From: a phage
Length of the DNA stretch: 64,000 nt
NCBI GenBank assembly: GCA_028130375.1
Contig: GCA_028130375.1_3658.1
Direction: 5' to 3' (one strand)
Part shown: positions 48,280 to 62,165 of the stretch, in pieces
Layout of the letters: each line of letters opens with the position of its first letter
Position numbering within the stretch: position 1 is the first letter of the stretch
Program-made: the position numbers and the translations under genes
The notes under the pieces: model-generated
What the model was told of the DNA's origin: nothing
Database searches by the model: none
Seen by the model: only the letters and a program-made list of their open reading frames with translations

Positions 48280-48589
48280 TACTTGAAAATTCCTGGCATA
48301 TCAAGTGTAAGGAGGATTTCTAAAATGGATTTCCTCCTTTTGATATTTCACCGGGTTAGATATTTTAAAATTCTTAGAAAATCAGAAAATGGATCGAAAA
48401 CTAAAATGGATTTTTCAGAGCAGGCGCGACAAACCGAATCACTCATCCTATCGTTTGCACCATATTCCAGTCCACCATTACAGATTTCCCGCACATGCTT
48501 ACATCCTTCTACTGGAACTTCCTCCACTTACCCTTGACCTTTTATGGTAATAATCTAACCACTATCTTGAGGTTGCGGTACAGCTTTCC

Positions 48590-48770
48590 GGGTACTCGAT
48601 CTGTTTTTCGTTTCAAAGATTGAATTTTCTTAAAATTTTTCTCGATAAATTTCTCAGTACTCGATCTGTTTTTCGTTTTCTGAATCGGATTTTCTGGAAA
48701 TCGTTCCGGAGCTCGACCTGAAATTTTTGGGAACGAAATCGATTTTTCGTTTTCAGAAATGGATTTTTAA
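48590..48770. repeat. AT-rich direct repeats (tactcgatctgtttttcgttt x2 plus degenerate copy)
   Basis: Exact 21-bp repeat at about 48591-48611 and 48655-48675; related cgatttttcgttttc near 48740; aaatggattt motif recurs 4 times in 48320-48760. Confidence 0.6.
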
Positions 48771-48881
48771 AATTTCTATATGGGAATATTTTATGGGATA
48801 CTGTTTTATAGGAAATTGTTACGGAGGGTAATTAGCACGCTAATTAAATTTATTAAATGCGAGGAGTTCTCATTTAGAATT

Positions 48882-50190: not shown

Positions 50191-50272
50191 AAATCATTGA
50201 CACGCTGCAAAATTTAAGTAAACTAGACACAAAAGGCGGGAATGTTTCCCGCCAGCACAAAGGAAAAAGATC

Positions 50273-50677
50273 ATGAATAAGAACGTACGCCGCATCATGA
50301 ACGAGTTGGCAAACGATGAAAAAATTATTGACATGCATTTGATCAACATTTGCCGCCGTTGTGTAACATATAACAACCGCGCCGCAAAAGCGCGTGAGAT
50401 GAACGCAAAAGGCACCTTAAAGCCATTCCAGGTGGTGGTAAAGGCCATTAAAGATGTAACTAATACGGCAAACCAGGTACAGGGGAACACCAACGAGAGT
50501 ACCAATATTGATCCAGCTTACATCATGAAACGGATCCGGACCTGCAAGAACAAAGAGCAAGTGTATAATGTCATAGACTGGTTGGATTCTATGGGCGATG
50601 TGGTTTACAATAGGTTTTCTGCAGCTATCGAGATCCAGCTTGACAGGTTGGACGGTAAAGTACTGAAAACTTACTAA
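50273..50677 (+). CDS. Hypothetical protein
   Basis: 134 aa; cassette TTGACA-16-TAAACT, hairpin ggcgggaatgtttcccgcc, SD, ATG. Confidence 0.5.
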   Translation: MNKNVRRIMNELANDEKIIDMHLINICRRCVTYNNRAAKAREMNAKGTLKPFQVVVKAIKDVTNTANQVQGNTNESTNIDPAYIMKRIRTCKNKEQVYNVIDWLDSMGDVVYNRFSAAIEIQLDRLDGKVLKTY

Positions 50678-50678
50678 G

Positions 50679-50725
50679 TTTATTTTTAGATGGCCTTGAC
50701 TTCAGGGCCATCAATAAAGTAAACT
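50679..50725 (+). repeat. Promoter-bearing stem-loop repeat, copy 1
   Basis: ttatttttagatggccttgacttcagggccatcaataaagtaaact; 7-bp stem gatggcc / ggccatc with TTGACT in the loop, TAAACT downstream. Confidence 0.65.
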
Positions 50726-50757
50726 AATCTCAACTAAGCGAAAAAGGGGGCTTTAAG

Positions 50758-50877
50758 ATGAGCACTACACGCCAATACACAAAGGTAACTATTATCGTTT
50801 GCGTTGTCGGTTACATCCTGGCGCAAATGTTAATGAGTAGCGCTAACAGTTTTGCAAAATTTTTCTTAAATTTTTAA
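50758..50877 (+). CDS. Tiny hydrophobic peptide (39 aa)
   Basis: Unlisted short ORF after the repeat; RBS aaaaaggggg; sequence MSTTRQYTKVTIIVCVVGYILAQMLMSSANSFAKFFLNF. Confidence 0.3.
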   Translation: MSTTRQYTKVTIIVCVVGYILAQMLMSSANSFAKFFLNF

Positions 50878-50956
50878 TTGACAAACTGACTTAGATCGAT
50901 ATACTTAAACACGTAAACGGGAAAACTTCCCAGAGCACACAAAAGGAGAAAACACC

Positions 50957-51298
50957 ATGACTACTATGACCGCCGCAGAAAAAGCTATGCAGATCGCCGC
51001 GCTGAAAAAACAGATCGCAGACCTTGAGAACAAGATCGATAACTTTGAAATCGACGAGGACAAGTACGACGAAAACTATGATGAATGGTTAGACGAGATC
51101 TACGGCGAAATTATGATCGGAAACATTTCTTTTCTTCCGTCGCGTATCCTCAAGGAGCTAGATCCTATCGCTTACCGCTGCGGATTTGGCGACTACATCG
51201 ACAGCCTGGATATTGAGGACGATGAAGAATACCAGGAACTACAGACAGAGTTAGAAGAAGCAAAAGAAGAGCTTGCGGAGCTGGAAGAAAACGAGTAA
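50957..51298 (+). CDS. Hypothetical acidic protein
   Basis: 113 aa, Asp/Glu-rich C-terminus; cassette TTGACA-16-TATACT + hairpin + aaaaggagaaaacaccATG. Confidence 0.5.
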   Translation: MTTMTAAEKAMQIAALKKQIADLENKIDNFEIDEDKYDENYDEWLDEIYGEIMIGNISFLPSRILKELDPIAYRCGFGDYIDSLDIEDDEEYQELQTELEEAKEELAELEENE

Positions 51299-51300
51299 GA

Positions 51301-51346
51301 TTATTTTTAGATGGCCTTGACTTCAGGGCCATCAATAAAGTAAACT
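51301..51346 (+). repeat. Promoter-bearing stem-loop repeat, copy 2
   Basis: Identical to copy 1 over about 46 bp, directly after the 51298 stop. Confidence 0.65.
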
Positions 51347-51387
51347 TTATACTGTTAACACTGAACTAATTCAGAGGAGTTAAAACC

Positions 51388-51633
51388 ATGGCAGCACTAA
51401 TCACCAAATATTATGCCCCTACCAACACCAAAAGCGCCCGTATCATGGTAAAAGGCTTCGGACGTAAAAAGGTTTACACCTGGGATTATGCCTTAGACAC
51501 GGAAGACAACTACACCAACGCGATGACCGATTTTATTAATGATCTGAACACGCGGATCTTGACAAATTATAAAATTACCGATATTGCCTATATAGGGGAA
51601 GGCGGGATCTGTTTTGTCGGTATCGTCAAATAA
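51388..51633 (+). CDS. Hypothetical protein
   Basis: 81 aa with RBS gaggag. Confidence 0.5.
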   Translation: MAALITKYYAPTNTKSARIMVKGFGRKKVYTWDYALDTEDNYTNAMTDFINDLNTRILTNYKITDIAYIGEGGICFVGIVK

Positions 51634-51709
51634 GCTGTTTTTTCGGTGGTCCTGGTAGCAGGGCCATCTATAAAGATAGTTTATCAACACAATGAAAGGA
51701 GAAAGTAAC

Positions 51710-52063
51710 ATGATCAGCGGGGCAAGTTTTATTATTGGCGCTATTGCTACGGCTTTAATTGTAAACAAGATCCAATCCAAAAACGAAAAAGAGAGCAACG
51801 CGCTTACAGAATACCCATTTTGGGTATTCAACGACAATGAAGACTACATTATCAAGTACAAGGATGAGAAAGGGGACCAGGTAACACCGAGACCGATCCC
51901 AGCTTACAAGATGCAAGAAACATTATACCGCTTAAAGGCTGGCGGCGCAAAAATCGTAGACTTTTGGGGATATGATTGCAAGGATCAGGAGACTATAAAA
52001 CGTCGTATCCGGGCGATTCAGGCAAATATTGAGATCAGTAAAGGGGGCGTTTATGAAAATTAA
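51710..52063 (+). CDS. Putative membrane protein
   Basis: ATG 51710 after aaaggagaaagtaac; N-terminal TM-like ISGASFIIGAIATALIV. Confidence 0.45.
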   Translation: MISGASFIIGAIATALIVNKIQSKNEKESNALTEYPFWVFNDNEDYIIKYKDEKGDQVTPRPIPAYKMQETLYRLKAGGAKIVDFWGYDCKDQETIKRRIRAIQANIEISKGGVYEN

Positions 52064-52250
52064 TTTCGAAAAAATTGTAAAGCGCCCCCACGATTCCGAA
52101 GAGCTGCCGGAACGCCGCCAGCGTAACAATAAACTGAATAAACCGAAAAGGTTCGGGAAGATCTGGAGAAATCACTATGATCGCAAATTACCGAGCCTGC
52201 TTTTGGAACGTGAACGACAGGCGGAACGATACCGCCACAAAGACAAATAG
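52053..52250 (+). CDS. Small highly basic protein
   Basis: About 65 aa rich in Arg/Lys (KRPHDSEELPERRQRNNKLNKPKRFGK); followed by a terminator hairpin at about 52268-52297. Confidence 0.4.
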   Translation: MKINFEKIVKRPHDSEELPERRQRNNKLNKPKRFGKIWRNHYDRKLPSLLLERERQAERYRHKDK

Positions 52251-52495
52251 CAACCAACGCCCCGCCATTGTGAGGGGCTTTTTATTTCTATCCCGCCGAT
52301 AGCGCCCCTGGTTGGCCCTACAAGCGCCATAAAGGCCCCTACCTATGCAATCCCCTTTCTTAACCTGAAAACAGCGTCTAGGGCCGTTTTATGGCGTTAA
52401 AAATATTATTGACAGTGATTCTATTTAAAGCTTGACACCTTGGGATAGTCCGGATATACTAACCACATCAAAGCAAGAAGGAAGGAGTAAACGCC

Positions 52496-52756
52496 ATGCG
52501 TAAATTAAAAAATTTTGATAAAGTCGATGTTGTCCTGAATAATTTTTACTACTGCAATAATAAAGCCGTTTGGTGGCGTGATAGTTCCACCGATAAAGTT
52601 AAAGCGCGCTTTCTCCAAGGGCACTGGCAAGGCCGTCCAGTGATTAAAATCCTGGGGCAATTGGTAGCGTTTAAAAATTGCCGCCGTGTTGATGACGTTG
52701 AAGAGATTCTAAACATTTTACGCCACAATAATTTAAAAAATAGTGTTGACAAGTAA
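52496..52756 (+). CDS. Hypothetical protein
   Basis: 86 aa; cassette TTGACA-17-TATACT upstream. Confidence 0.5.
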   Translation: MRKLKNFDKVDVVLNNFYYCNNKAVWWRDSSTDKVKARFLQGHWQGRPVIKILGQLVAFKNCRRVDDVEEILNILRHNNLKNSVDK

Positions 52757-52830
52757 GTCTCAATAAGTATACTTAAACACACAGGCGGGAAGTTTTCCCG
52801 CCACTAACAAAGAAAATAGGAGAAAATATC

Positions 52831-53454
52831 ATGACCACCGTTAACATTACTACAGGTTACAATTTATCTTTCGACGTGCTGACCGGCGAACAAAAAGAAA
52901 AAGCTGTTGAAATGGTCCGCGAAAGAGAAGAACACAGCGGGGATAACTTTTTTGCAGAAAGTGTAATTGAGTACTATAAAGAATATGTTTTTCCAGAGTA
53001 TGGCCTTGAAGATACCGAAATACATTGGTCCGGCTTTTGGTGTCAAGGCGACGGCGCATCAATTAGCGCTGAAAATGTAAACTTAGAAAAATTCTTGCGT
53101 AAGGTTAAAGCGCTTACAAAATTCCGCTTAATTAGACACTTGTTCGGCACAATGCATGATGGCGAACTGTCAGCCAGCGTTGAACGTATCCCGTTTAGCC
53201 ATTATCATCACGAAAACACAATAGGCGGGTGCATCGATACCAATTGGCTAGACCTGACCACCAAGCAAGAGGATAAAGTTGAAGAGCTGGAAGAGCTGAT
53301 CACCGAGACGGTACGGGAGTTATCCCGCAAGGTTTACGTAGACCTGGAGCAAGCCTATCTTGAACAATTCACCACCGAAAACCTGATCGGCCTTATCGAG
53401 GCCAATGATTGGCGGTTTGATGTGGATGAATATGGCGAGATGACTTTTTCATAA
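52831..53454 (+). CDS. Hypothetical protein
   Basis: 207 aa; cassette TTGACA-16-TATACT, hairpin ggcgggaagttttcccgcc, aaataggagaaaatatcATG. Confidence 0.55.
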   Translation: MTTVNITTGYNLSFDVLTGEQKEKAVEMVREREEHSGDNFFAESVIEYYKEYVFPEYGLEDTEIHWSGFWCQGDGASISAENVNLEKFLRKVKALTKFRLIRHLFGTMHDGELSASVERIPFSHYHHENTIGGCIDTNWLDLTTKQEDKVEELEELITETVRELSRKVYVDLEQAYLEQFTTENLIGLIEANDWRFDVDEYGEMTFS

Positions 53455-53542
53455 ATAAAGTGTTGCAATAACCTAAAAACCTGCTATATTAGAACTCAAG
53501 GGGCAAGAAGTTTGCCCCACACAAAACAAAGAGGAAAACATC

Positions 53543-53923
53543 ATGAAAAGCACCACTAAAGCCATTGACACCGTTATGTTTAACCTGGTTACCTTTCGCG
53601 AGGATATGAAAGATCTTCCACGTGAAACAGTGCGCGATCACATTGAAAACTATCGCAAACTAATCAAAGAGTTGCCTTTAAAACGTGACCAGTACGCGGC
53701 TAACGCTATGCTTAACGCTATGATCAAGAAAATGATCCAGTGTGATTTGACTTTAGCTTATGATTATGCAGGTGGTCGTTTTGCAGTATACAATCAGCCC
53801 GTGCCCGGTATGAGCACCACCGAAGAATTGCACGCGTTAAATCTGAAACAAGATGTATGGGATAACATGCCCCGCGTGGTGGTGTGGGCAGAAAGCGGAA
53901 AGATTTACGGCGATAATTTTTAA
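53543..53923 (+). CDS. Hypothetical protein
   Basis: 126 aa; upstream hairpin ggggcaagaagtttgcccc and aaagaggaaaacatcATG. Confidence 0.5.
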   Translation: MKSTTKAIDTVMFNLVTFREDMKDLPRETVRDHIENYRKLIKELPLKRDQYAANAMLNAMIKKMIQCDLTLAYDYAGGRFAVYNQPVPGMSTTEELHALNLKQDVWDNMPRVVVWAESGKIYGDNF

Positions 53924-53987
53924 TCAGGTAACAGGCGGCATATTTGCCGCCTTATTGTTAAACAGAACTGCAAAAGAGGTACATAGA

Positions 53988-54359
53988 ATGGAATTTATTA
54001 TTTTGGCTGTAGTAGTTGCCTTGTTCAACGCCTGGATAGCTGGCAAAATAGGTAGATCCGCTTTTCTATGGTTTGTTATATCTATTTTCCTGGGAGTGGT
54101 TGCAACCATTGTACTAGTTATCCTTGCAATTGTTGACAAGGATAATAATAAGAAGGGTAAAGTATTTTCCGACCTGTATGACGCCCAAACTTTTGTTAAC
54201 GCCTATTATAGTGATCTTCCGGTCTCCTTGCGCTGCAGCCTGGCGCAACAAGTTTTTGATGAGGCTAAAACCAGAGATCAAGCCCATGAGATATGTTTAA
54301 CTGAGGCGGATCGCCTATTTGAGAGGAATAGAAAATATGTGGGCCAACCGTTTAAATAA
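53988..54359 (+). CDS. Putative membrane protein (2 TM)
   Basis: ATG 53988 after aaagaggtacatagA; MEFIILAVVVALFNAWIAGKIG and FLWFVISIFLGVVATIVLVILAIV. Confidence 0.45.
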   Translation: MEFIILAVVVALFNAWIAGKIGRSAFLWFVISIFLGVVATIVLVILAIVDKDNNKKGKVFSDLYDAQTFVNAYYSDLPVSLRCSLAQQVFDEAKTRDQAHEICLTEADRLFERNRKYVGQPFK

Positions 54360-54582
54360 TGCCACGTTAATTAATCCCTTTAGTGAAGATTTGAAGCCAG
54401 CCGCCTGGCGTGACGGATTCAATAACGAACGCTTTATTTTCAGGCCTGATCTTGAGGAATTTTATAACAATGGATCGAACAACAGCGGAGATAATTTTTC
54501 TTGTGGTGTGTGTCGTGATGGTACTCCTGGGGGCCATTGTAAACCACGTCACTACTACCAGGAGGAAAGGGGGAGACGATGA
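54337..54582 (+). CDS. Hypothetical small protein
   Basis: ATG 54337 after gagaggaa; overlaps an alternative-frame ORF, so it is uncertain. Confidence 0.3.
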   Translation: MWANRLNNATLINPFSEDLKPAAWRDGFNNERFIFRPDLEEFYNNGSNNSGDNFSCGVCRDGTPGGHCKPRHYYQEERGRR

Positions 54583-54837
54583 CAACCAAGGATAAGCCAT
54601 GCACCGATAAGGTGCGCCGCGTTATGGTATGGCTTGAGATTATCGCCCTTGAAATATTGCTAGGAGTAGGGATGTACTTTATCGCTGTAAGTAACTAGGA
54701 ACGGCCCCCGATCATGGGGGCCTATCTTTTTAAAAAATTTTTCTTCCGTGGTGTTGCAATCCGGTCCGGAATGTGGATAATAACAATCAACGGGGAGCTA
54801 ATCCCCACCACCACAAAAACCAGAAAGGAGAAACAAA

Positions 54838-55038
54838 ATGAGCAACAATATCCGCGTTATTAACTTCAAAAAAGAAGAAAAAATTGCCGTGCTGATTGAC
54901 GGTCAAGAAATCTTCAAGGGCGACTATGAAGATCATCAAACGGCGATTAGTATCACTCGCGTGATTGGTTACCATAATTTTTACCCCCAAGGCGCTGAGG
55001 CAGCGGTTAAACGAATCAAAGAGATTGTAGGCCTGTAA
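54838..55038 (+). CDS. Hypothetical small protein
   Basis: 66 aa; promoter TTGCAA..GATAAT, hairpin ggggagctaatcccc, aaaggagaaacaaaATG. Confidence 0.5.
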   Translation: MSNNIRVINFKKEEKIAVLIDGQEIFKGDYEDHQTAISITRVIGYHNFYPQGAEAAVKRIKEIVGL

Positions 55039-55041
55039 AAT

Positions 55042-55085
55042 TTATTTTTAGATGGCCTTGACTCCAGGGCCATCAATAAAGTAAA
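55042..55085 (+). repeat. Promoter-bearing stem-loop repeat, copy 3
   Basis: Same element with one substitution in the loop (ttgactcc vs ttgacttc). Confidence 0.65.
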
Positions 55086-55131
55086 TTTAAACCCTGTTAA
55101 AATACCACACAGTTAACAAGGAGTGATAGAC

Positions 55132-55431
55132 ATGTTTATCCAGGCTAATAATCTTTATTTCTTTGATGGTCAGATCGTAGATGGTGTGGAAGTGGAGATC
55201 ACCGGGTGCCCTGGCGGTCAGGCTATGACTTTTCGGAATAATGCCTTTGATGATTCTCATATCGTTATGAGAATGGAAGTTACGAAGCTGGACGACAAGA
55301 AAACACTTATTGACTATTCTGTGAAAGATCATCCAGACTACCGCATGATCCATGGCGATTTGTGCATTGTTGACCGTGACAAGGTGGGCGGCATTGTGAT
55401 CGCTATTGTGAACGATGTTTTCTCAAACTAA
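55132..55431 (+). CDS. Hypothetical protein
   Basis: ATG 55132 after aaggag. Confidence 0.5.
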   Translation: MFIQANNLYFFDGQIVDGVEVEITGCPGGQAMTFRNNAFDDSHIVMRMEVTKLDDKKTLIDYSVKDHPDYRMIHGDLCIVDRDKVGGIVIAIVNDVFSN

Positions 55432-55448
55432 TTTCAGCAGGCGATTTT

Positions 55449-55799
55449 ATGAAAGTCAAACTATATTACCTTAATGAGCTTAACCCCCTTGCCCAGGTCC
55501 GCGCCCTAGCTAATACCTTGATTTGTGAGAAATCTGTATATTGTGTTGAGCTTAACGCCATGCGTGAACGTCTCAAAGGTGGTTACTTTGACATCCATGC
55601 TGCAATCAACGGCCTGAATATAGAATTTATACGCTTACGTAACAGCCGCCGGAATCTGGCAAGAATGGAACAAGATCCGGCCCACCTTCGTAAGCTGGTT
55701 ATTGAAAATCATCTGATGTTTAATGCCGAGGGTGATTATTACCATTTTCACCGCAAACGCTGGTACCGTGGCGGCAATACAGGCAAGAATGCAAAATAA
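55449..55799 (+). CDS. Hypothetical protein
   Basis: 116 aa; followed by terminator hairpin aggctatgc-aat-cgcatagcct at about 55836-55866. Confidence 0.5.
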   Translation: MKVKLYYLNELNPLAQVRALANTLICEKSVYCVELNAMRERLKGGYFDIHAAINGLNIEFIRLRNSRRNLARMEQDPAHLRKLVIENHLMFNAEGDYYHFHRKRWYRGGNTGKNAK

Positions 55800-56001
55800 G
55801 GCCCCAGGCAGGGCCTACAGCGACCTAAACACTAGCAGGCTATGCAATCGCATAGCCTTTATTGTTTTGACGTTACAACGGCCCTAAGGTGCTTAAAAAA
55901 AAATTTTAAATAAAGGCTTGCATCAAGTCGAACAATATGGATAATAAGAGGTGTAGGGAGGTGATGCCTCCAATCATTAACAAAAACAGGAGTTAAAGAA
56001 T

Positions 56002-56286
56002 ATGGCTATTGTTACCGCTGGCGATGTAGTAAAAATGGAAGCGAAGTATTTAAAAGCTGGTATGCATATCATCCGCAATGATCTTGAACTGGTCCTCACT
56101 ATGGTTGATTATAACCCTGGTCAAGATTATCCAAGTGTTGACTACTTTTTTGAGTATGTCGATGAAGAGCTAAAAGAGGATGAGGCCTACTGCGGAGAAT
56201 TCTGCAACTACTTTTGCCCTGACGAGGTTGTAAAAGTTATCTACCAACCTGGCGTACCTTTCCCGCTACACGCTATCAATAAATAA
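56002..56286 (+). CDS. Hypothetical protein
   Basis: 94 aa; promoter TTGCAT-17-(G)ATAAT at about 55919-55950. Confidence 0.5.
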   Translation: MAIVTAGDVVKMEAKYLKAGMHIIRNDLELVLTMVDYNPGQDYPSVDYFFEYVDEELKEDEAYCGEFCNYFCPDEVVKVIYQPGVPFPLHAINK

Positions 56287-56341
56287 ACCCGGCGGGGCCG
56301 AAAAGGCCCCCAATTATGAAAATAAAGAGAGGTAAATCATC

Positions 56342-56575
56342 ATGATGGAACAAATTAAACGCACTGAGGCTATTAATGGCAATGTGATCTATTTTGTCAG
56401 CAAAAACGAAAAAGGCGTACCCTATGCGGCGGTAACAGTACAACCTGACGGCGATTATTGGTTTACTGTGTACGGCGCTTATTCTTTTGGGCGTCCAGTG
56501 CATGATAAAATTTTGAAAGTAGCGAACCCTACCGGGAAGAATATCACAGCAGAAAAATTTTTTGAAAATAGTTGA
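56342..56575 (+). CDS. Hypothetical protein
   Basis: 77 aa, RBS agagaggtaaa. Confidence 0.5.
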   Translation: MMEQIKRTEAINGNVIYFVSKNEKGVPYAAVTVQPDGDYWFTVYGAYSFGRPVHDKILKVANPTGKNITAEKFFENS

Positions 56576-56650
56576 CATGACCATATAAGACTGTAATATA
56601 TAAATCAAAGGGGGCAACAAGCCCCACCAACCACAAAGAGGATAAAAATC

Positions 56651-56830
56651 ATGGCTATTATTGCAAAGACTGAGATCGTAGGCTTAGATTCTATTCTCCT
56701 CGCATATGAGGAAGCTATAGAAATGTATGTGGTTTCCTATGGTGAGTATATCCGTGAATATAAATCTATTGATCTGGCTTTTGAATGTTATATTCGCCAG
56801 GTTAATAAAGCGTACGATGATTATCGTTAA
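56651..56830 (+). CDS. Small hypothetical protein (59 aa)
   Basis: Unlisted short ORF with full cassette TTGACA..TAATAT, hairpin, acaaagaggataaaaatcATG. Confidence 0.35.
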   Translation: MAIIAKTEIVGLDSILLAYEEAIEMYVVSYGEYIREYKSIDLAFECYIRQVNKAYDDYR

Positions 56831-57035
56831 AATAGTTTGACAACAAACAACCATCTAACAAAGCATAATACATAAGGTGGTAGAATGATCCGCCACCCGG
56901 AACAAAGAAGAGGTAAACACCATGAAACAAAAATTAATTGATGCTGTGATCCTGGTTATTGCCCTGGGTATTGGCCTGATTGCAACCATGGCTAATATGA
57001 TCTTGTCTTCCAACGGTATCTGGTGAGGTTGGCAA

Positions 57036-57251
57036 ATGATCACTAACAAAACAGGCAAAACAGAATTTTTACGCAACTTACAGATCGGCAAGCCTGAGAT
57101 CTGGTATTGCACTAAAACACCACGTGACGAAATGAAAGACTTCACCGCCACGTTGCAACGGGTAAAGATATCCATCACGCAGAAAAAGGCCTTATTAGTG
57201 GTGGAAGGTGAGATCCCCCAAACCGTTGTTATAGTTGAGCGTACAGCATAG
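57036..57251 (+). CDS. Hypothetical protein
   Basis: 71-aa ORF. Confidence 0.4.
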   Translation: MITNKTGKTEFLRNLQIGKPEIWYCTKTPRDEMKDFTATLQRVKISITQKKALLVVEGEIPQTVVIVERTA

Positions 57252-57342
57252 TTTAATTTATACCGATACCCGAAAATTAACCAACAAAGCATAAACAGGC
57301 GGTTACCGCCGCCTTAAACGTAGCAGAAAGAGGATAGACACA

Positions 57343-57627
57343 ATGAAAAAGATGATCGCAGTGGTTGCCCTGGTTGTTGGACTTAATGCGCCTGTAATGG
57401 CTAAAGAGCTGGCAAAAGAGGTTAATCTAACGGATATTCATGCCGTCAATAAAATCGGGGTTACTTATCGCTTATGCCTTGCCGCTAAAACTTTCCAGGA
57501 CGGCACGACAGAGTACTACGGATTCGAGGGTATCCGGTGCGGTGAGCTTGCTCGCGACCTTAAGGAAGATCCAGACCTGGAAGATCTGCCCATCACCGTA
57601 AACGGTAAAGCTTACGTAAACCGTTAA
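57343..57627 (+). CDS. Small secreted/periplasmic protein (signal peptide)
   Basis: 94 aa; MKKMIAVVALVVGLNAPVMAKE looks like a Sec signal; RBS agaaagagga. Confidence 0.5.
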   Translation: MKKMIAVVALVVGLNAPVMAKELAKEVNLTDIHAVNKIGVTYRLCLAAKTFQDGTTEYYGFEGIRCGELARDLKEDPDLEDLPITVNGKAYVNR

Positions 57628-57779
57628 CCATGAGAAAGATAATCATCACCTTGGGGATTGTGGCGGGATCGCTGGCGCTCTTTCCCCTTATGGTTAGGTA
57701 TGTGCTGATCAGTATTGTCCTGGTAGTCAGTGATCTATTGGAAACGGTTGGCACCTTGTTTTAAAGAGCGATAAAAAAA

Positions 57780-57971
57780 ATGAATGTCGAACAAGTTAGA
57801 AAGGTATTGGCGGTACTGCGTTATCATAATCATAGAAAGGTCATAGACGATCCTGATTATGTCGATTCAAACCTGGAAGAGGATACACTACAAGCCATAA
57901 GTAACATGCAAGAATTGCTAAAGCGCATGACAGAGAAAAACCGACCGGACTACATAGGCGAAAAAATATAA
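57780..57971 (+). CDS. Hypothetical small protein
   Basis: 63 aa; followed by hairpin aaaacagg..cctgtttt + T-run at about 57986-58015. Confidence 0.4.
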   Translation: MNVEQVRKVLAVLRYHNHRKVIDDPDYVDSNLEEDTLQAISNMQELLKRMTEKNRPDYIGEKI

Positions 57972-58030
57972 TATTTATAAACTACAAAACAGGGCTTGCA
58001 ATGGTCCTGTTTTTTGTTATACTTATTCCA

Positions 58031-58066
58031 CGGCAGGCACCTGGCGACGGGGGAGACAATCACCGG
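58031..58066. repeat. GC-rich dispersed element, inverted copy
   Basis: Reverse complement matches 49056-49090. Confidence 0.55.
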
Positions 58067-58181
58067 GCCTGCCTGTCATATAAGAACTATAAAAACCGTT
58101 GACATCTGCCATGGGGTGGGGTAACATTTATCTTGAAGGGGCAAAAGTGCCCACACAACAACCAGGAGAGAGGAAAACATT

Positions 58182-59074: not shown

Positions 59075-59217
59075 TACAACAAGTTACGGTCAGGGGGTAA
59101 TAAAGCCCCTTGATCACATAAAAATTATGCTATCCCTGGTTGACAGGGATCGGCAGTTTTGCTATATTCTTTTTTGAAGGGAAGTTGTAAGAAAATTAAC
59201 TAAGAGGTAAAAACACC

Positions 59218-59637
59218 ATGAACATTAAATCTAATAATCCGGCATATAGCTTTGATAACGCTTTTTGTCACGGTCCGGCGGCGAAAGGATTCGAAATCGA
59301 TGGTAAACTAATTATTGTCAATGTTGACGGGGAAGAGGTTGCAGTATATCCGGTGGCAGACGTAAAAAGTCGTTTACAATGCCGCATGGATGTTACCGCC
59401 TACCAGCTTGATCCGGTCCGCATAGTTGCCCTGGTCCTGGAAGGAGAAATTAAAGCCATGCACCATAGCAACAGGTTTATTGGTGACGCTCAGGATAATA
59501 TGAAAGTATGCCGCCATAAAGTTAATGAAGTGCTTAAAGAGTACGGCTATAAAGATCTTATGATCAAACGTGAGGAAAAATTCCGCTACCGTAACGACCT
59601 GGCAAATCGGATTTTTGAAATATACGAATCATTATAA
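59218..59637 (+). CDS. Hypothetical protein (last gene of cluster)
   Basis: 139 aa; promoter TTGACA-17-TATATT at about 59141-59169; terminator hairpin aaggggcttaggcccctt + T-run at 59655-59680. Confidence 0.5.
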   Translation: MNIKSNNPAYSFDNAFCHGPAAKGFEIDGKLIIVNVDGEEVAVYPVADVKSRLQCRMDVTAYQLDPVRIVALVLEGEIKAMHHSNRFIGDAQDNMKVCRHKVNEVLKEYGYKDLMIKREEKFRYRNDLANRIFEIYESL

Positions 59638-60298
59638 TTTTTAACTGAATTATCAAGGGGCTTAGGCCCCTTTCTTTTTGTCTGCTCTTCCCCCCTACCA
59701 TAAACGGCCCTACCTGGCAAGTGGAATAATTGACGAGCCATCAATCCCACACACTGTACAAATATACATGTAAAATAGCTATTGCATAACCTTTCATTGT
59801 GTGGTAGCGGTGCTATTTTTTACCCGTTTTCCTTCCAAAATTGCACGTAATGCAGTTATTGCACAAAATTTAACCTGATGCACATCTTCAATATCTTGTC
59901 AACAACTAAAAATCTTTATAAGTCATACACTTACACAAACCAAAGAGCGTGTTCTACGTGAAAAATCGAGTATAACTATAGCCGCCAGATCTCAGAATTT
60001 ACGTACGCTCGCCATTCTATAGCCTGCTAAGCATTTATTCCAACCATAGAATAACGGAATAGTCAATACCTGCATAAAATAATTATTCGTGTAAACTGCA
60101 TAACATAAATCAGCTTAGGTGTCAACATTTTTCGTAAACAGTCTGAAATTATCACGGTGAGTTATCATAAACAGAGAAATCTTTAGTCGTCTAATGTTTA
60201 CTGTACGTTACTATACTAACTGAAATCATTAGATGACTAATAGAAAGATAAGAAATAATTAACAATACAATTATTTTATCTGTAACAATAAGGCAACT

Positions 60299-60530
60299 AT
60301 GCAAACGAATGGCATGGCGCGACGGAGTCGCGACATAATATAAAAGCAGTAACCATCACCCCCGTGATAGTTTGTCTGCAAACTATTAATCAGATCATAG
60401 TTGCCTTGTATTTAGTTAATCATGACATAACAAGCAAGGCAACTATAGATCTTCTAATAGTTGCCCTGCTTTTATATTATGTCATAGATTATTAACTTGC
60501 TAATAGTTATCATGCAAACGAATGGCATGG
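60299..60530. repeat. Nested inverted/direct repeat block (GGCAACTAT arms; 20-bp direct repeat atgcaaacgaatggcatggc)
   Basis: ggcaactat at about 60292 and 60437 with reverse complement atagttgcc at about 60399 and 60458; exact 20-bp direct repeat at 60299-60318 and 60511-60530. Confidence 0.6.
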
Positions 60531-60533
60531 CTT

Positions 60534-60608
60534 ATCATTTCCATGTAAACTGTCAAGGTGTAAACTATCCAGGCGTAAACAGTCTATGCGGGAACAATCT
60601 ATACGTGA
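60534..60608. repeat. Iteron-like tandem array (5 copies, period about 15 bp, core GTAAAC-W-GTC)
   Basis: gtaaactgtcaagg / gtaaactatccagg / gtaaacagtctatg / gaacaatctatacg / gtgaacagtgaaac; further GTAAACAG copies near 60100, 60136, 60907, 61676. Confidence 0.6.
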
Positions 60609-61254
60609 ACAGTGAAACATGAAATAATAACAGTCGTTATTGTTCCATATTGTGTCATAGTATGTCACCATTATGTCTAAAGTGTCTAAGGTGTCAGACA
60701 AGTTTTTCTCCTCTTTGTCAAGTGCTGCATGAAAAATTTACAATCTTGTATGGTAGCATTTTTGCGGCCATGTTTACATTCAGCGATGTATGTATAAGCC
60801 TTGTTGTGTGGGCGTTTAGACGTCTAGACGGTTGGAAGTCCACAGGTCAATATCTAATCTATCGGCTGCTAACTATATCCCACACAAATAGTAATAAATA
60901 TAATTGTTATATGCGTAAACAGTAACTCATGTTATCAATCCCTGTATGTATCGCCAGTGGTGCGCATAATGGGTATTATGTTAAATTGCCCGTAATGATA
61001 ACAGTTCTCACAATGATAGGTATTCTCATTCATCCACACAAAATAGGTTGCAAATGTTGTGCCACTGTGTGAACGGCCTGGCCTATTAATTTCTCTCACT
61101 GCCTCGATATTTGAGAATTGTTATAAGAATGAGAAGTATTCCCATTCCGTCCGCCTGGCAGCGCTCCTGTAGGTCCTGCAAGGACTCTAGCTGAAAGCTA
61201 GACCCTTCGGGCCTCCCTGTAGGTCAGGTCAAAATCGTGGCAGAACTGAGCCTG

Positions 61255-61470
61255 TTCAGATATTTCTGGCTGACTCTTCAGGTCTGTGTGGGAAAAGCCA
61301 ACCTCTCCGGCGGGGCAGGGGGAGGTCAATTAAAAAATTTACGTGGTGTATGAAGCGCTCTTCAGGTAAGGCAGGTATTATGGGATGAAACCCTCTTCAG
61401 GCAATGATATTTGTGGGTGTGATATTTGCTGGAAAGCCAGATATGACGGGACTCCCGGCGGGGCAGGGGT
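61255..61470. repeat. GC-rich direct repeats (CTCTTCAGG several copies; cYccggcggggcagggg x2)
   Basis: ctcttcagg at about 61275, 61349, 61393 (again near 61805); ccggcggggcagggg at 61307-61321 and 61455-61469. Confidence 0.55.
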
Positions 61471-62165
61471 AGTACAGACAGGGAAAATATGAGAATGTAG
61501 TTGGGGAAATTGATCAGACAGGTAGAGTATGGAATATGTTACAAGTATGTTAAATATGGAGGTTGAATATCTGTAGGATTTGTGTGTAAAATCAAAGACT
61601 TAAGGGGTGTTGTGGTATTTTCTATAAATAATTCAAGTTTAATAGGCAATATTTGTCTCTATCCGCTTTGTGTGGTAAACAGATTCAGATTAGATTGGTT
61701 TACAAGTGTATACATAATATACAAATTAAAGATACAAGAAACCCCCCTCCCCCCTTCGGCTACCATTCACCTTTTCCTCTGACTGGTACTTAAACACTTA
61801 TTCAGACTCTTCAGGTTATCACCCATATATCATATGGCAGTGACTGGTGTCCTCCGGCCCCTCTTTCGTCACCCGTCCGCTTCGCCATGCTAATGCCATA
61901 GCTAATGGTTCGGTTGTTCACCCTGTTCACTCAGGTGTATCTCTATACCCCTTCAAACCGAAGAGAACAGAAAACCCGAATTACTCGGTAAAAGAAAAGA
62001 GAAGAACTTAATTTTATCAGGATAGGCAAGAATGTCAAGGCATGACTGCTCACTAAACAAGCAAACAGTCATGTGTGGGAGGTAAGTGATTGTGGTGGTA
62101 GGAAATTTAGTTGAAAGATGTGTTATAGGTGCTTCCAGCACTTTAGCCGGGCAGCTAATTGTGTG

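Follow-up and report, generated by a model that had tools for sequence, protein, structure and literature searches.

The early region of an rV5-like phage contains a short hairpin-forming repeat at the ends of several small genes, and the question raised by this locus is whether the repeat serves as DNA, in the manner of a promoter and recombination site, or as RNA. The window analyzed here, meaning the whole stretch of 64,000 nucleotides of phage DNA (GenBank assembly GCA_028130375.1, contig GCA_028130375.1_3658.1), had first been described from its letters alone. This sequence-only reading reported three copies of a stem-loop and likened them to the promoter-early-stem-loop (PeSL) elements of T4-type phages. 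The region around the repeat is matched at 92-97% identity by more than 100 genomes of Vequintavirus (rV5-like) E. coli phages, O157 typing phage 14 being the closest match. The small early genes among which the repeat is located form a cluster on the + strand, and the cluster genes around it all fall into PHROG families without an assigned function. It is real and conserved and is best described as a recombinogenic regulatory cassette with an RNA hairpin core. The conserved, selected feature is the RNA hairpin in sense transcripts.

Copies of the repeat were located by a 24-mer search and a repeat search. The 24-mer GATGGCCTTGACTTCAGGGCCATC, for which 100 shuffles gave a chance expectation of 0 matches, occurs exactly at 50689-50712 and 51310-51333 and with one T>C change at 55051-55074. 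In the 51-nt repeat family, copies 1-3 share 92-100% identity, and a fourth, diverged member shows 69% identity. The four copies are listed with their stop codons, their predicted folding energies and their covariance model scores:

50675-50725, + strand: copy 1, at the TAA stop of a 134-aa gene (rV5 ORF194 homologue); -25 kcal/mol, z -6.6; 81 bits
51296-51346, + strand: copy 2, at the TAA stop of a 113-aa gene (rV5 ORF192 homologue); -21.1 kcal/mol; 77.5 bits
51631-51681, + strand: copy 4, at the TAA stop of an 81-aa gene (rV5 ORF191 homologue); -27 kcal/mol; 71.5 bits
55037-55087, + strand: copy 3, overlapping the TAA stop (55036-55038) of a 66-aa gene (rV5 ORF179 homologue); -23.6 kcal/mol; 79.4 bits

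The three copies first proposed were thus placed correctly to within 1-4 nt. Their position immediately after a stop codon also holds for each copy, as the upstream open reading frames (ORFs) end at 50677, 51298, 51633 and 55038 and no copy begins more than 1 nt away from the stop codon. Copy 3 differs from copy 1 by the exchange of the G4-C50 pair for A4-U50. The fourth copy, which had been called degenerate, is degenerate in sequence (35 of 51 positions are identical to copy 1 and 16 differ) but not in structure, as the hairpin is kept. The repeat is absent from the annotation of the records examined and from the text of the rV5 genome paper.

The RNA of each + strand copy is predicted to fold into two stacked 10-bp helices, which are separated by a 2x3 internal loop and capped by a tetraloop; the lower of the two is rich in A/U. 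The lower helix joins repeat positions 3-12 with 42-51 and the upper helix joins positions 15-24 with 29-38 (GAUGGCCUUG/CAGGGCCAUC) around the 4-nt loop; each helix includes one U.G pair, and a further U13-A40 pair is possible across the internal loop. The predicted RNA fold of copy 1 has the following parts:

50677-50686 / 50716-50725, + strand: lower helix
50687-50688 and 50713-50715, + strand: internal loop
50689-50698 / 50703-50712, + strand: upper helix
50699-50702, + strand: tetraloop

The fold energies of the four copies range from -21 to -27 kcal/mol with z values of about -6.5, and no shuffled sequence folds equally well. Copy 4 forms the same two-helix hairpin with a GUAG loop. A T-rich run 5' of the GC stem is paired to an A-rich run 3' of this stem. 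The structure is not the 7-bp stem with TTGACT in its loop that had been suggested: there are two 10-bp helices and a tetraloop, the TTG of the putative -35 hexamer is paired and the loop holds just AC and the next base.

The pairing was followed in an alignment of 24 distinct copies, drawn from the window and from eight relatives (9 genomes in total). Standard pairs occupy 98.5% of the cells, compared with 35-57% after the 3' partners were slid by 1-3 columns. Four pairs of the lower helix have changed on both sides (4-50 as G-C, A-U or G.U; 5-49 as U-A or C-G; 7-47 as U-A, A-U or G.U; 8-46 as A-U or U-A), and three pairs of the upper helix vary by wobble alone. Copy 4 differs from copy 1 at ten paired and six unpaired positions, and it nevertheless retains 20 of 20 pairs, the seven affected pairs comprising three double-sided and four wobble changes. 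Among orthologues the variation sits in the loop and the helix base, with five different dinucleotides at loop positions 27-28, and the stems are invariant. Pairing also depends on the strand. All copies together pair at 98.5% on the + strand versus 85.8% on the - strand, and for copy 4 these values are 99.3% versus 77.9%, with a mean minimum free energy of -23.2 versus -8.7 kcal/mol (-27 versus -9.2 kcal/mol for the single fold). Because the pairing holds on the sense strand only, the selected feature is a sense-strand RNA hairpin.

The same data bear on an explanation at the DNA level, in which the repeat would be an operator for a dimeric DNA-binding protein (GATGGCC/GGCCATC over the -35 hexamer) or a cruciform that promotes recombination. 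Copies 1-3 do contain a perfect 7-bp inverted repeat, the DNA of copy 1 folds at -11.7 kcal/mol on the + strand and -9.7 kcal/mol on the - strand, and the phage encodes an endonuclease VII-like junction nuclease (rV5 ORF97). However, copy 4 breaks the palindrome at 2 of 7 positions in a way that preserves G.U on the sense RNA, and its DNA fold is not fully kept, with the lower helix lost and energies of -7.6 and -5.3 kcal/mol on the two strands. The half-site centers are in addition 17 bp apart, which corresponds to a non-integer number of helical turns. An action of the repeat as a DNA structure or operator is thus regarded as very improbable.

The dimensions of the hairpin point to an RNase III-type signal. 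The idealized E. coli RNase III substrate is a helix of 22 bp with a central target site and recognition about 11 bp off, and loops or mismatches at the target lead to a single cut that leaves a stabilizing 3' hairpin (PMC3867540; PMC1540722). The sequence rules for the RNase III boxes are degenerate (PMC3867540), and the early mRNA of phage T7 is punctuated by five RNase III sites (PMC1540722; PMC3867540). The helix of the repeat measures about 21-22 bp, or about two helical turns, and in all four copies 10 bp separate the internal loop from either end. The T7 RefSeq record carries no annotated RNase III sites, and the T7 intergenic gaps were folded in place for comparison, which yielded 10-bp upper stems with tetra- or penta-loops. 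The RNase III-type reading is ranked first because the two-turn length and the central loop fit both the published substrate and the T7 folds. On early polycistronic transcripts produced by read-through, the hairpin would serve in processing and in 3' stability: a cut by host RNase III within the internal loop at the center would leave a protective 3' hairpin on the upstream cistron and detach the downstream cistron, much as at the intergenic sites of T7. In three of the four copies an overlapping, moderate sigma70-type promoter may restart transcription of the downstream gene, and copies 1-3, as direct repeats, occasionally allow homologous recombination to delete the intervening genes. For this combination of an RNase III-type processing or 3'-stability signal in the sense RNA, an overlapping modest promoter and recombining copies, in which we infer cleavage, stabilization and promoter activity, the confidence is about even.

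Several observations weigh against this assignment. The match to the RNase III boxes is partial and, the rules being degenerate, speaks neither for nor against cleavage: next to the loop, the U.G and U-A pairs are reminiscent of T7 R1.1, whereas copy 4 shows C-G in place of the U.G pair, and a G-C pair borders the internal loop. The covariation stems largely from one old, diverged paralogue and a few orthologue variants (5-49 as C-G, U-A or U.G). The element is missing at distant homologous loci and is accordingly not a deeply conserved requirement, and the literature on Vequintavirus yielded no transcriptome or 5'-end map. The promoter part is affected by the 65 matches at the 9/12 level that were found in the region versus 40.5 expected by chance, and by copy 4, which is devoid of a -35 hexamer. 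Finally, a stable hairpin could work without RNase III.

An RNA hairpin independent of RNase III might serve as a barrier to 3'-to-5' exonucleases after a cut elsewhere, or as a stop-codon structure that modulates termination or ribosome release. Bacterial repetitive extragenic palindromic (REP) hairpins are comparable to such a role. This alternative shares the structural evidence of the RNase III-type reading (fold, covariation and strand) and draws on two aspects of placement, namely the stop codon at or inside the helix base in all four copies and the REP-like location within operons directly 3' of a cistron. Yet an exonuclease barrier needs just a stable GC stem, and here the A/U-rich lower helix is conserved as well, with double compensatory changes; the two-turn duplex with its central loop suggests a length-measuring reader such as RNase III. 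No similar sequence is present in the E. coli genomes. A purely RNase III-independent role is therefore rated as quite unlikely.

The promoter-like hexamers deserve separate consideration. The following signals overlap the repeat:

50696-50725, + strand: promoter-like signal in copy 1, TTGACT (50696-50701), 18-bp spacer, TAAACT (50720-50725)
51317-51346, + strand: promoter-like signal in copy 2, TTGACT-18-TAAACT
55058-55087, + strand: promoter-like signal in copy 3, with TAAATT as -10 hexamer

TTGACT with TAAACT 18 bp downstream had been noted from the outset and is present, apart from the TAAATT of copy 3. The hexamers of copies 1-3 match the sigma70 consensus at 9 of 12 positions, and these copies possibly represent a sigma70-type promoter of moderate strength, as judged from sequence. 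A strict PeSL-type cassette would combine an early sigma70 promoter for the downstream gene with a stem-loop that terminates or attenuates upstream transcription. In T4-like phages (Arbiol et al. 2010, PMC2839356; Comeau et al. 2014, PMC4122927), PeSLs combine sigma70 promoters of consensus strength, whose upstream region is AT-rich, with a stem-loop that was shown to terminate transcription; they flank ORFans in many copies and mediate indels and mini-circles (PMC2839356). Several properties of the repeat agree with such a cassette. The T-rich sequence TTTATTTTTA directly precedes the upper stem in copies 1-3, upstream of the hexamers. TTGAC is invariant across relatives, and it is the least informative sixth position of the -35 hexamer that takes T, A, G or C, with the result that some relatives carry a perfect TTGACA. 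The -10 hexamer does not vary, not even where its 5' pairing partners do. The element is intergenic, and a Shine-Dalgarno (SD) sequence and start codon follow 30-45 nt downstream. Indels bounded by its copies occur, as they do for PeSLs (PMC2839356).

Other properties do not fit. With 9/12 matches and an 18-bp spacer the signal falls short of the criterion of the rV5 authors (10/12 with N15-17), and the repeat is not in the promoter and terminator table of their paper. Copy 4 dispenses with the -35 hexamer and keeps the hairpin through compensatory changes, and strong consensus promoters are already close by. The hairpin is not followed by a U-tract on either strand; AAUAAAG stands directly 3' of the upper stem, and on both strands T's precede and A's follow the hairpin, which is the reverse of an intrinsic terminator. 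The repeat is not listed in a terminator scan of the region and was not marked as a terminator by the annotators of rV5, HdK5 and isim. An identity as an intrinsic (rho-independent) terminator was rejected on the grounds of the missing U-tract and the scan, and the annotated 'terminator', 'promoter' and 'repeat_region' features of HdK5, rV5 and isim, which were considered as candidates, mark other signals. A strict PeSL-type cassette is thus rated as unlikely. Rather low odds are also given to a dual code, in which the DNA would drive the downstream gene as a sigma70 promoter and the RNA of read-through transcripts would be an RNase III punctuation hairpin that ends and stabilizes the upstream message at its stop codon, in plug-and-play cassettes that would have arisen in Vequintavirus independently of the T4 PeSLs. 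If this were true, each accessory gene would be bracketed by its own start and end signals, and homologous exchange between these brackets could add or remove genes and leave regulation undisturbed.

Searches with the repeat established its distribution. The covariance model, run with filters off, returned the four known sites only in the 64-kb window, and it found no copy in the rV5 segment at 27.5-110 kb, which is the part beyond the window, nor in seven distant IMG/VR loci. A blastn search with the 51-mer yielded 121 phage records, all of them Vequintavirus and almost always with three places each. There was no blastn match to the repeat in 5,426 E. coli genomes and no match of the exact pattern in 185,579 GTDB species genomes, and the matches of a pattern scan of IMG/VR were confined to rV5-like contigs. 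A host origin or a relationship to REP elements was rejected on the basis of the E. coli and GTDB results. Rfam gave no hit on the elements at E<=1 and none in the window at gathering score. At distant homologues of the 113-aa gene (47-61% amino acid identity) the stop codons are without a hairpin. The repeat is a genus-specific intercistronic cassette. With four copies only, all within 4.4 kb and in one genus, and with viable phages that lack one copy, it might also be left over from local duplications and have no function, or be a small selfish repeat, the hairpin and hexamers being incidental in either case. This is difficult to reconcile with stems that are invariant across approximately 120 genomes while the loop varies, with the retention of every pair by copy 4 at 31% divergence and with the conserved placement relative to the stop codon, and hardly any weight is attached to it.

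Copies 1-3 are near-identical direct repeats that lie 0.3-4.4 kb apart, and a role as recombination substrate and as a boundary of variable genes had been proposed for them. Two cassettes are delimited by neighboring copies:

50726-51295, + strand: cassette between copies 1 and 2, with a 39-aa ORF (50758-50877), a promoter TTGACA-16-TATACT (50878-50905) with a 5' hairpin, and a 113-aa ORF (50957-51298)
51347-51630, + strand: cassette between copies 2 and 4, with an 81-aa ORF (51388-51633)

In the phages ime, magaca and ECP32, exactly one 621-bp period (copy 1 to copy 2) is missing and a single fused copy is left; the genes and signals lost are the 39-aa ORF, the strong promoter and the 113-aa ORF. 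The alignment of ime to the window runs to 50725 and restarts at 51298, with a 49-nt overlap of the two blocks on the ime side. This overlap at the junction equals one element, as do those of ECP32 (61 nt), 241Ecol014PP (46 nt) and likewise magaca. Compared with HdK5, in which the cassette is present, the flanks are 100% identical in ime and 99.7-100% identical in magaca. ECP32 has another flank allele, which shares about 88% identity with ime and 97% with the window, and the 621-bp junction is therefore found on at least two backgrounds. In 241Ecol014PP, 335 bp are missing (copy 2 to copy 4, including the 81-aa ORF) and a chimeric element remains, which is copy-2-like up to CATCAATAAAG and copy-4-like thereafter. 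Junction searches indicated that such repeat-bounded deletions are rare (4 of approximately 120 genomes), and further indels in the region bypass the repeat, for example a 350-bp difference at 55439-55789 in rV5 and V18. The proposed role as a substrate and boundary is borne out by the clean repeat-to-repeat losses in these four phages; most indels of the region lie elsewhere. The repeat is a proven, if minor, homologous-recombination substrate that occasionally deletes the genes between its copies.

Two further observations concern exchange and loss in this region. Within a given genome, copies 1 and 2 often carry the same loop dinucleotide (TT/TT in the window; AC/AC in HdK5, V18 and 241Ecol014PP), which hints at gene conversion between these copies in a sample that is small and phylogenetically linked. 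The single-copy phage rV5_ev146 (LR699804.1), a laboratory-derived rV5 variant, has three early-region deletions of about 6.9 kb in total, which correspond to 50260-50770, 52200-58058 and 59111-59656 of the window. Repeat-mediated deletion was rejected for this phage, as the three deletions end at short microhomologies, e.g. CACAAAGG. Approximately 5.9 kb of early genes including copy 3 are therefore dispensable.

A second intergenic cassette type was observed in the window. It consists of a near-consensus promoter TTGACA-16/17-TATACT, a GC-rich 5-8-bp hairpin about 10 nt further on (e.g. GGCGGGAA...TTCCCGCC), and then an SD sequence and ATG. These hairpins reach -14.6 kcal/mol and the copies share sequence (repeat families D2, D4 and D7). 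This cassette type looks nearer to the published PeSL layout than the hairpin repeat does. Its copies are:

50197-50260, second-cassette copy
50878-50935, second-cassette copy
52746-52805, second-cassette copy
53463-53520, second-cassette copy
56572-56630, second-cassette copy
58099-58155, second-cassette copy
54754-54812, also a second-cassette copy

The small operon that holds copies 2 and 4 is closed by a gene for a 65-aa protein (52053-52247, + strand), which matches Pfam PF08200 (bacteriophage T7 gene 1.1 protein) with 44.7 bits versus a cut-off of 21; this gp1.1-like domain is the sole domain match among the cluster genes. Two other parts of the window also contain direct repeats. The 2.6-kb stretch at approximately 59300-61900, described in the rV5 genome paper as a 'non-coding' gap between ORF163 and ORF164, has a 20-nt exact direct repeat at 60299 and 60512 and no match in Rfam. 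The non-coding gap between small genes at 48585-48780 holds three imperfect 57-nt direct repeats, which are 61-75% identical at spacings of 65 and 74 nt and were not called by Tandem Repeats Finder. Among the database records, 17 'Campylobacter phage' entries (MG0656xx, host C. jejuni) are 92-100% identical to rV5-like phages in this region, and their host label looks doubtful.

The rV5-like phages are widely used in E. coli O157 typing, in biocontrol and in therapy cocktails, and their early region is composed of unannotated small genes without described RNA signals. The repeat is a candidate signal by which a host RNase would punctuate early operons after transcription. Its repeat-bounded deletions document a route of accessory-gene loss, which bears on the genome stability of therapeutic stocks and on the choice of insertion sites in engineering.

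Three known systems invite comparison. Bacterial REP elements and bacterial interspersed mosaic elements (BIMEs) are repeated imperfect palindromes inside operons, transcribed at the 3' end of a cistron. The upstream mRNA is stabilized by REP elements, which can also serve as recombination sites. The phage hairpin differs in being longer and bipartite, in its four copies and in having no similarity to E. coli genomes.

The T7 RNase III sites (R0.3, R0.5, R1, R1.1 and R1.3) likewise form hairpins where one early cistron of a polycistronic mRNA gives way to the next. In both systems an upper helix of about 10 bp, closed by a small loop, is followed by an internal loop and a lower helix, together about two turns. 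The T7 gaps with RNase III sites also hold the host promoters B and C and phage promoters. On the other hand, the only homology in sequence is a short UGGCCUU string, which is located on the opposite arm; the repeat has a smaller internal loop (2x3), its proximal and distal boxes match partly, and its cleavage is presumed.

The resemblance to PeSLs, which had been the original proposal, holds in part. Both are repeated intergenic cassettes amid small accessory early genes, and both combine sigma70-like hexamers, an AT- or T-rich stretch upstream of them and a stem-loop, with an SD sequence and start codon further downstream. In both, close relatives differ in whether they carry the gene cassettes between two copies, and where a cassette is missing the junction retains one hybrid copy; the genes bracketed by the copies are dispensable. 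In contrast to PeSLs, the repeat comes from Vequintavirinae, its promoter is sub-consensus with an 18-bp spacer and is lacking from one copy, and its hairpin encloses the whole promoter in a two-turn A/U and G/C helix with an internal loop instead of a polyG/polyC terminator stem with a U-tract. It occurs in four copies in one 4.4-kb stretch, whereas PeSLs number dozens. Because promoter strength, terminator form and copy number do not agree and there is no sequence relationship, the repeat is PeSL-like in its recombination behavior and not a member of the PeSL family. It represents a second, independent case beyond the T4-like phages of regulatory repeats that double as recombination sites.

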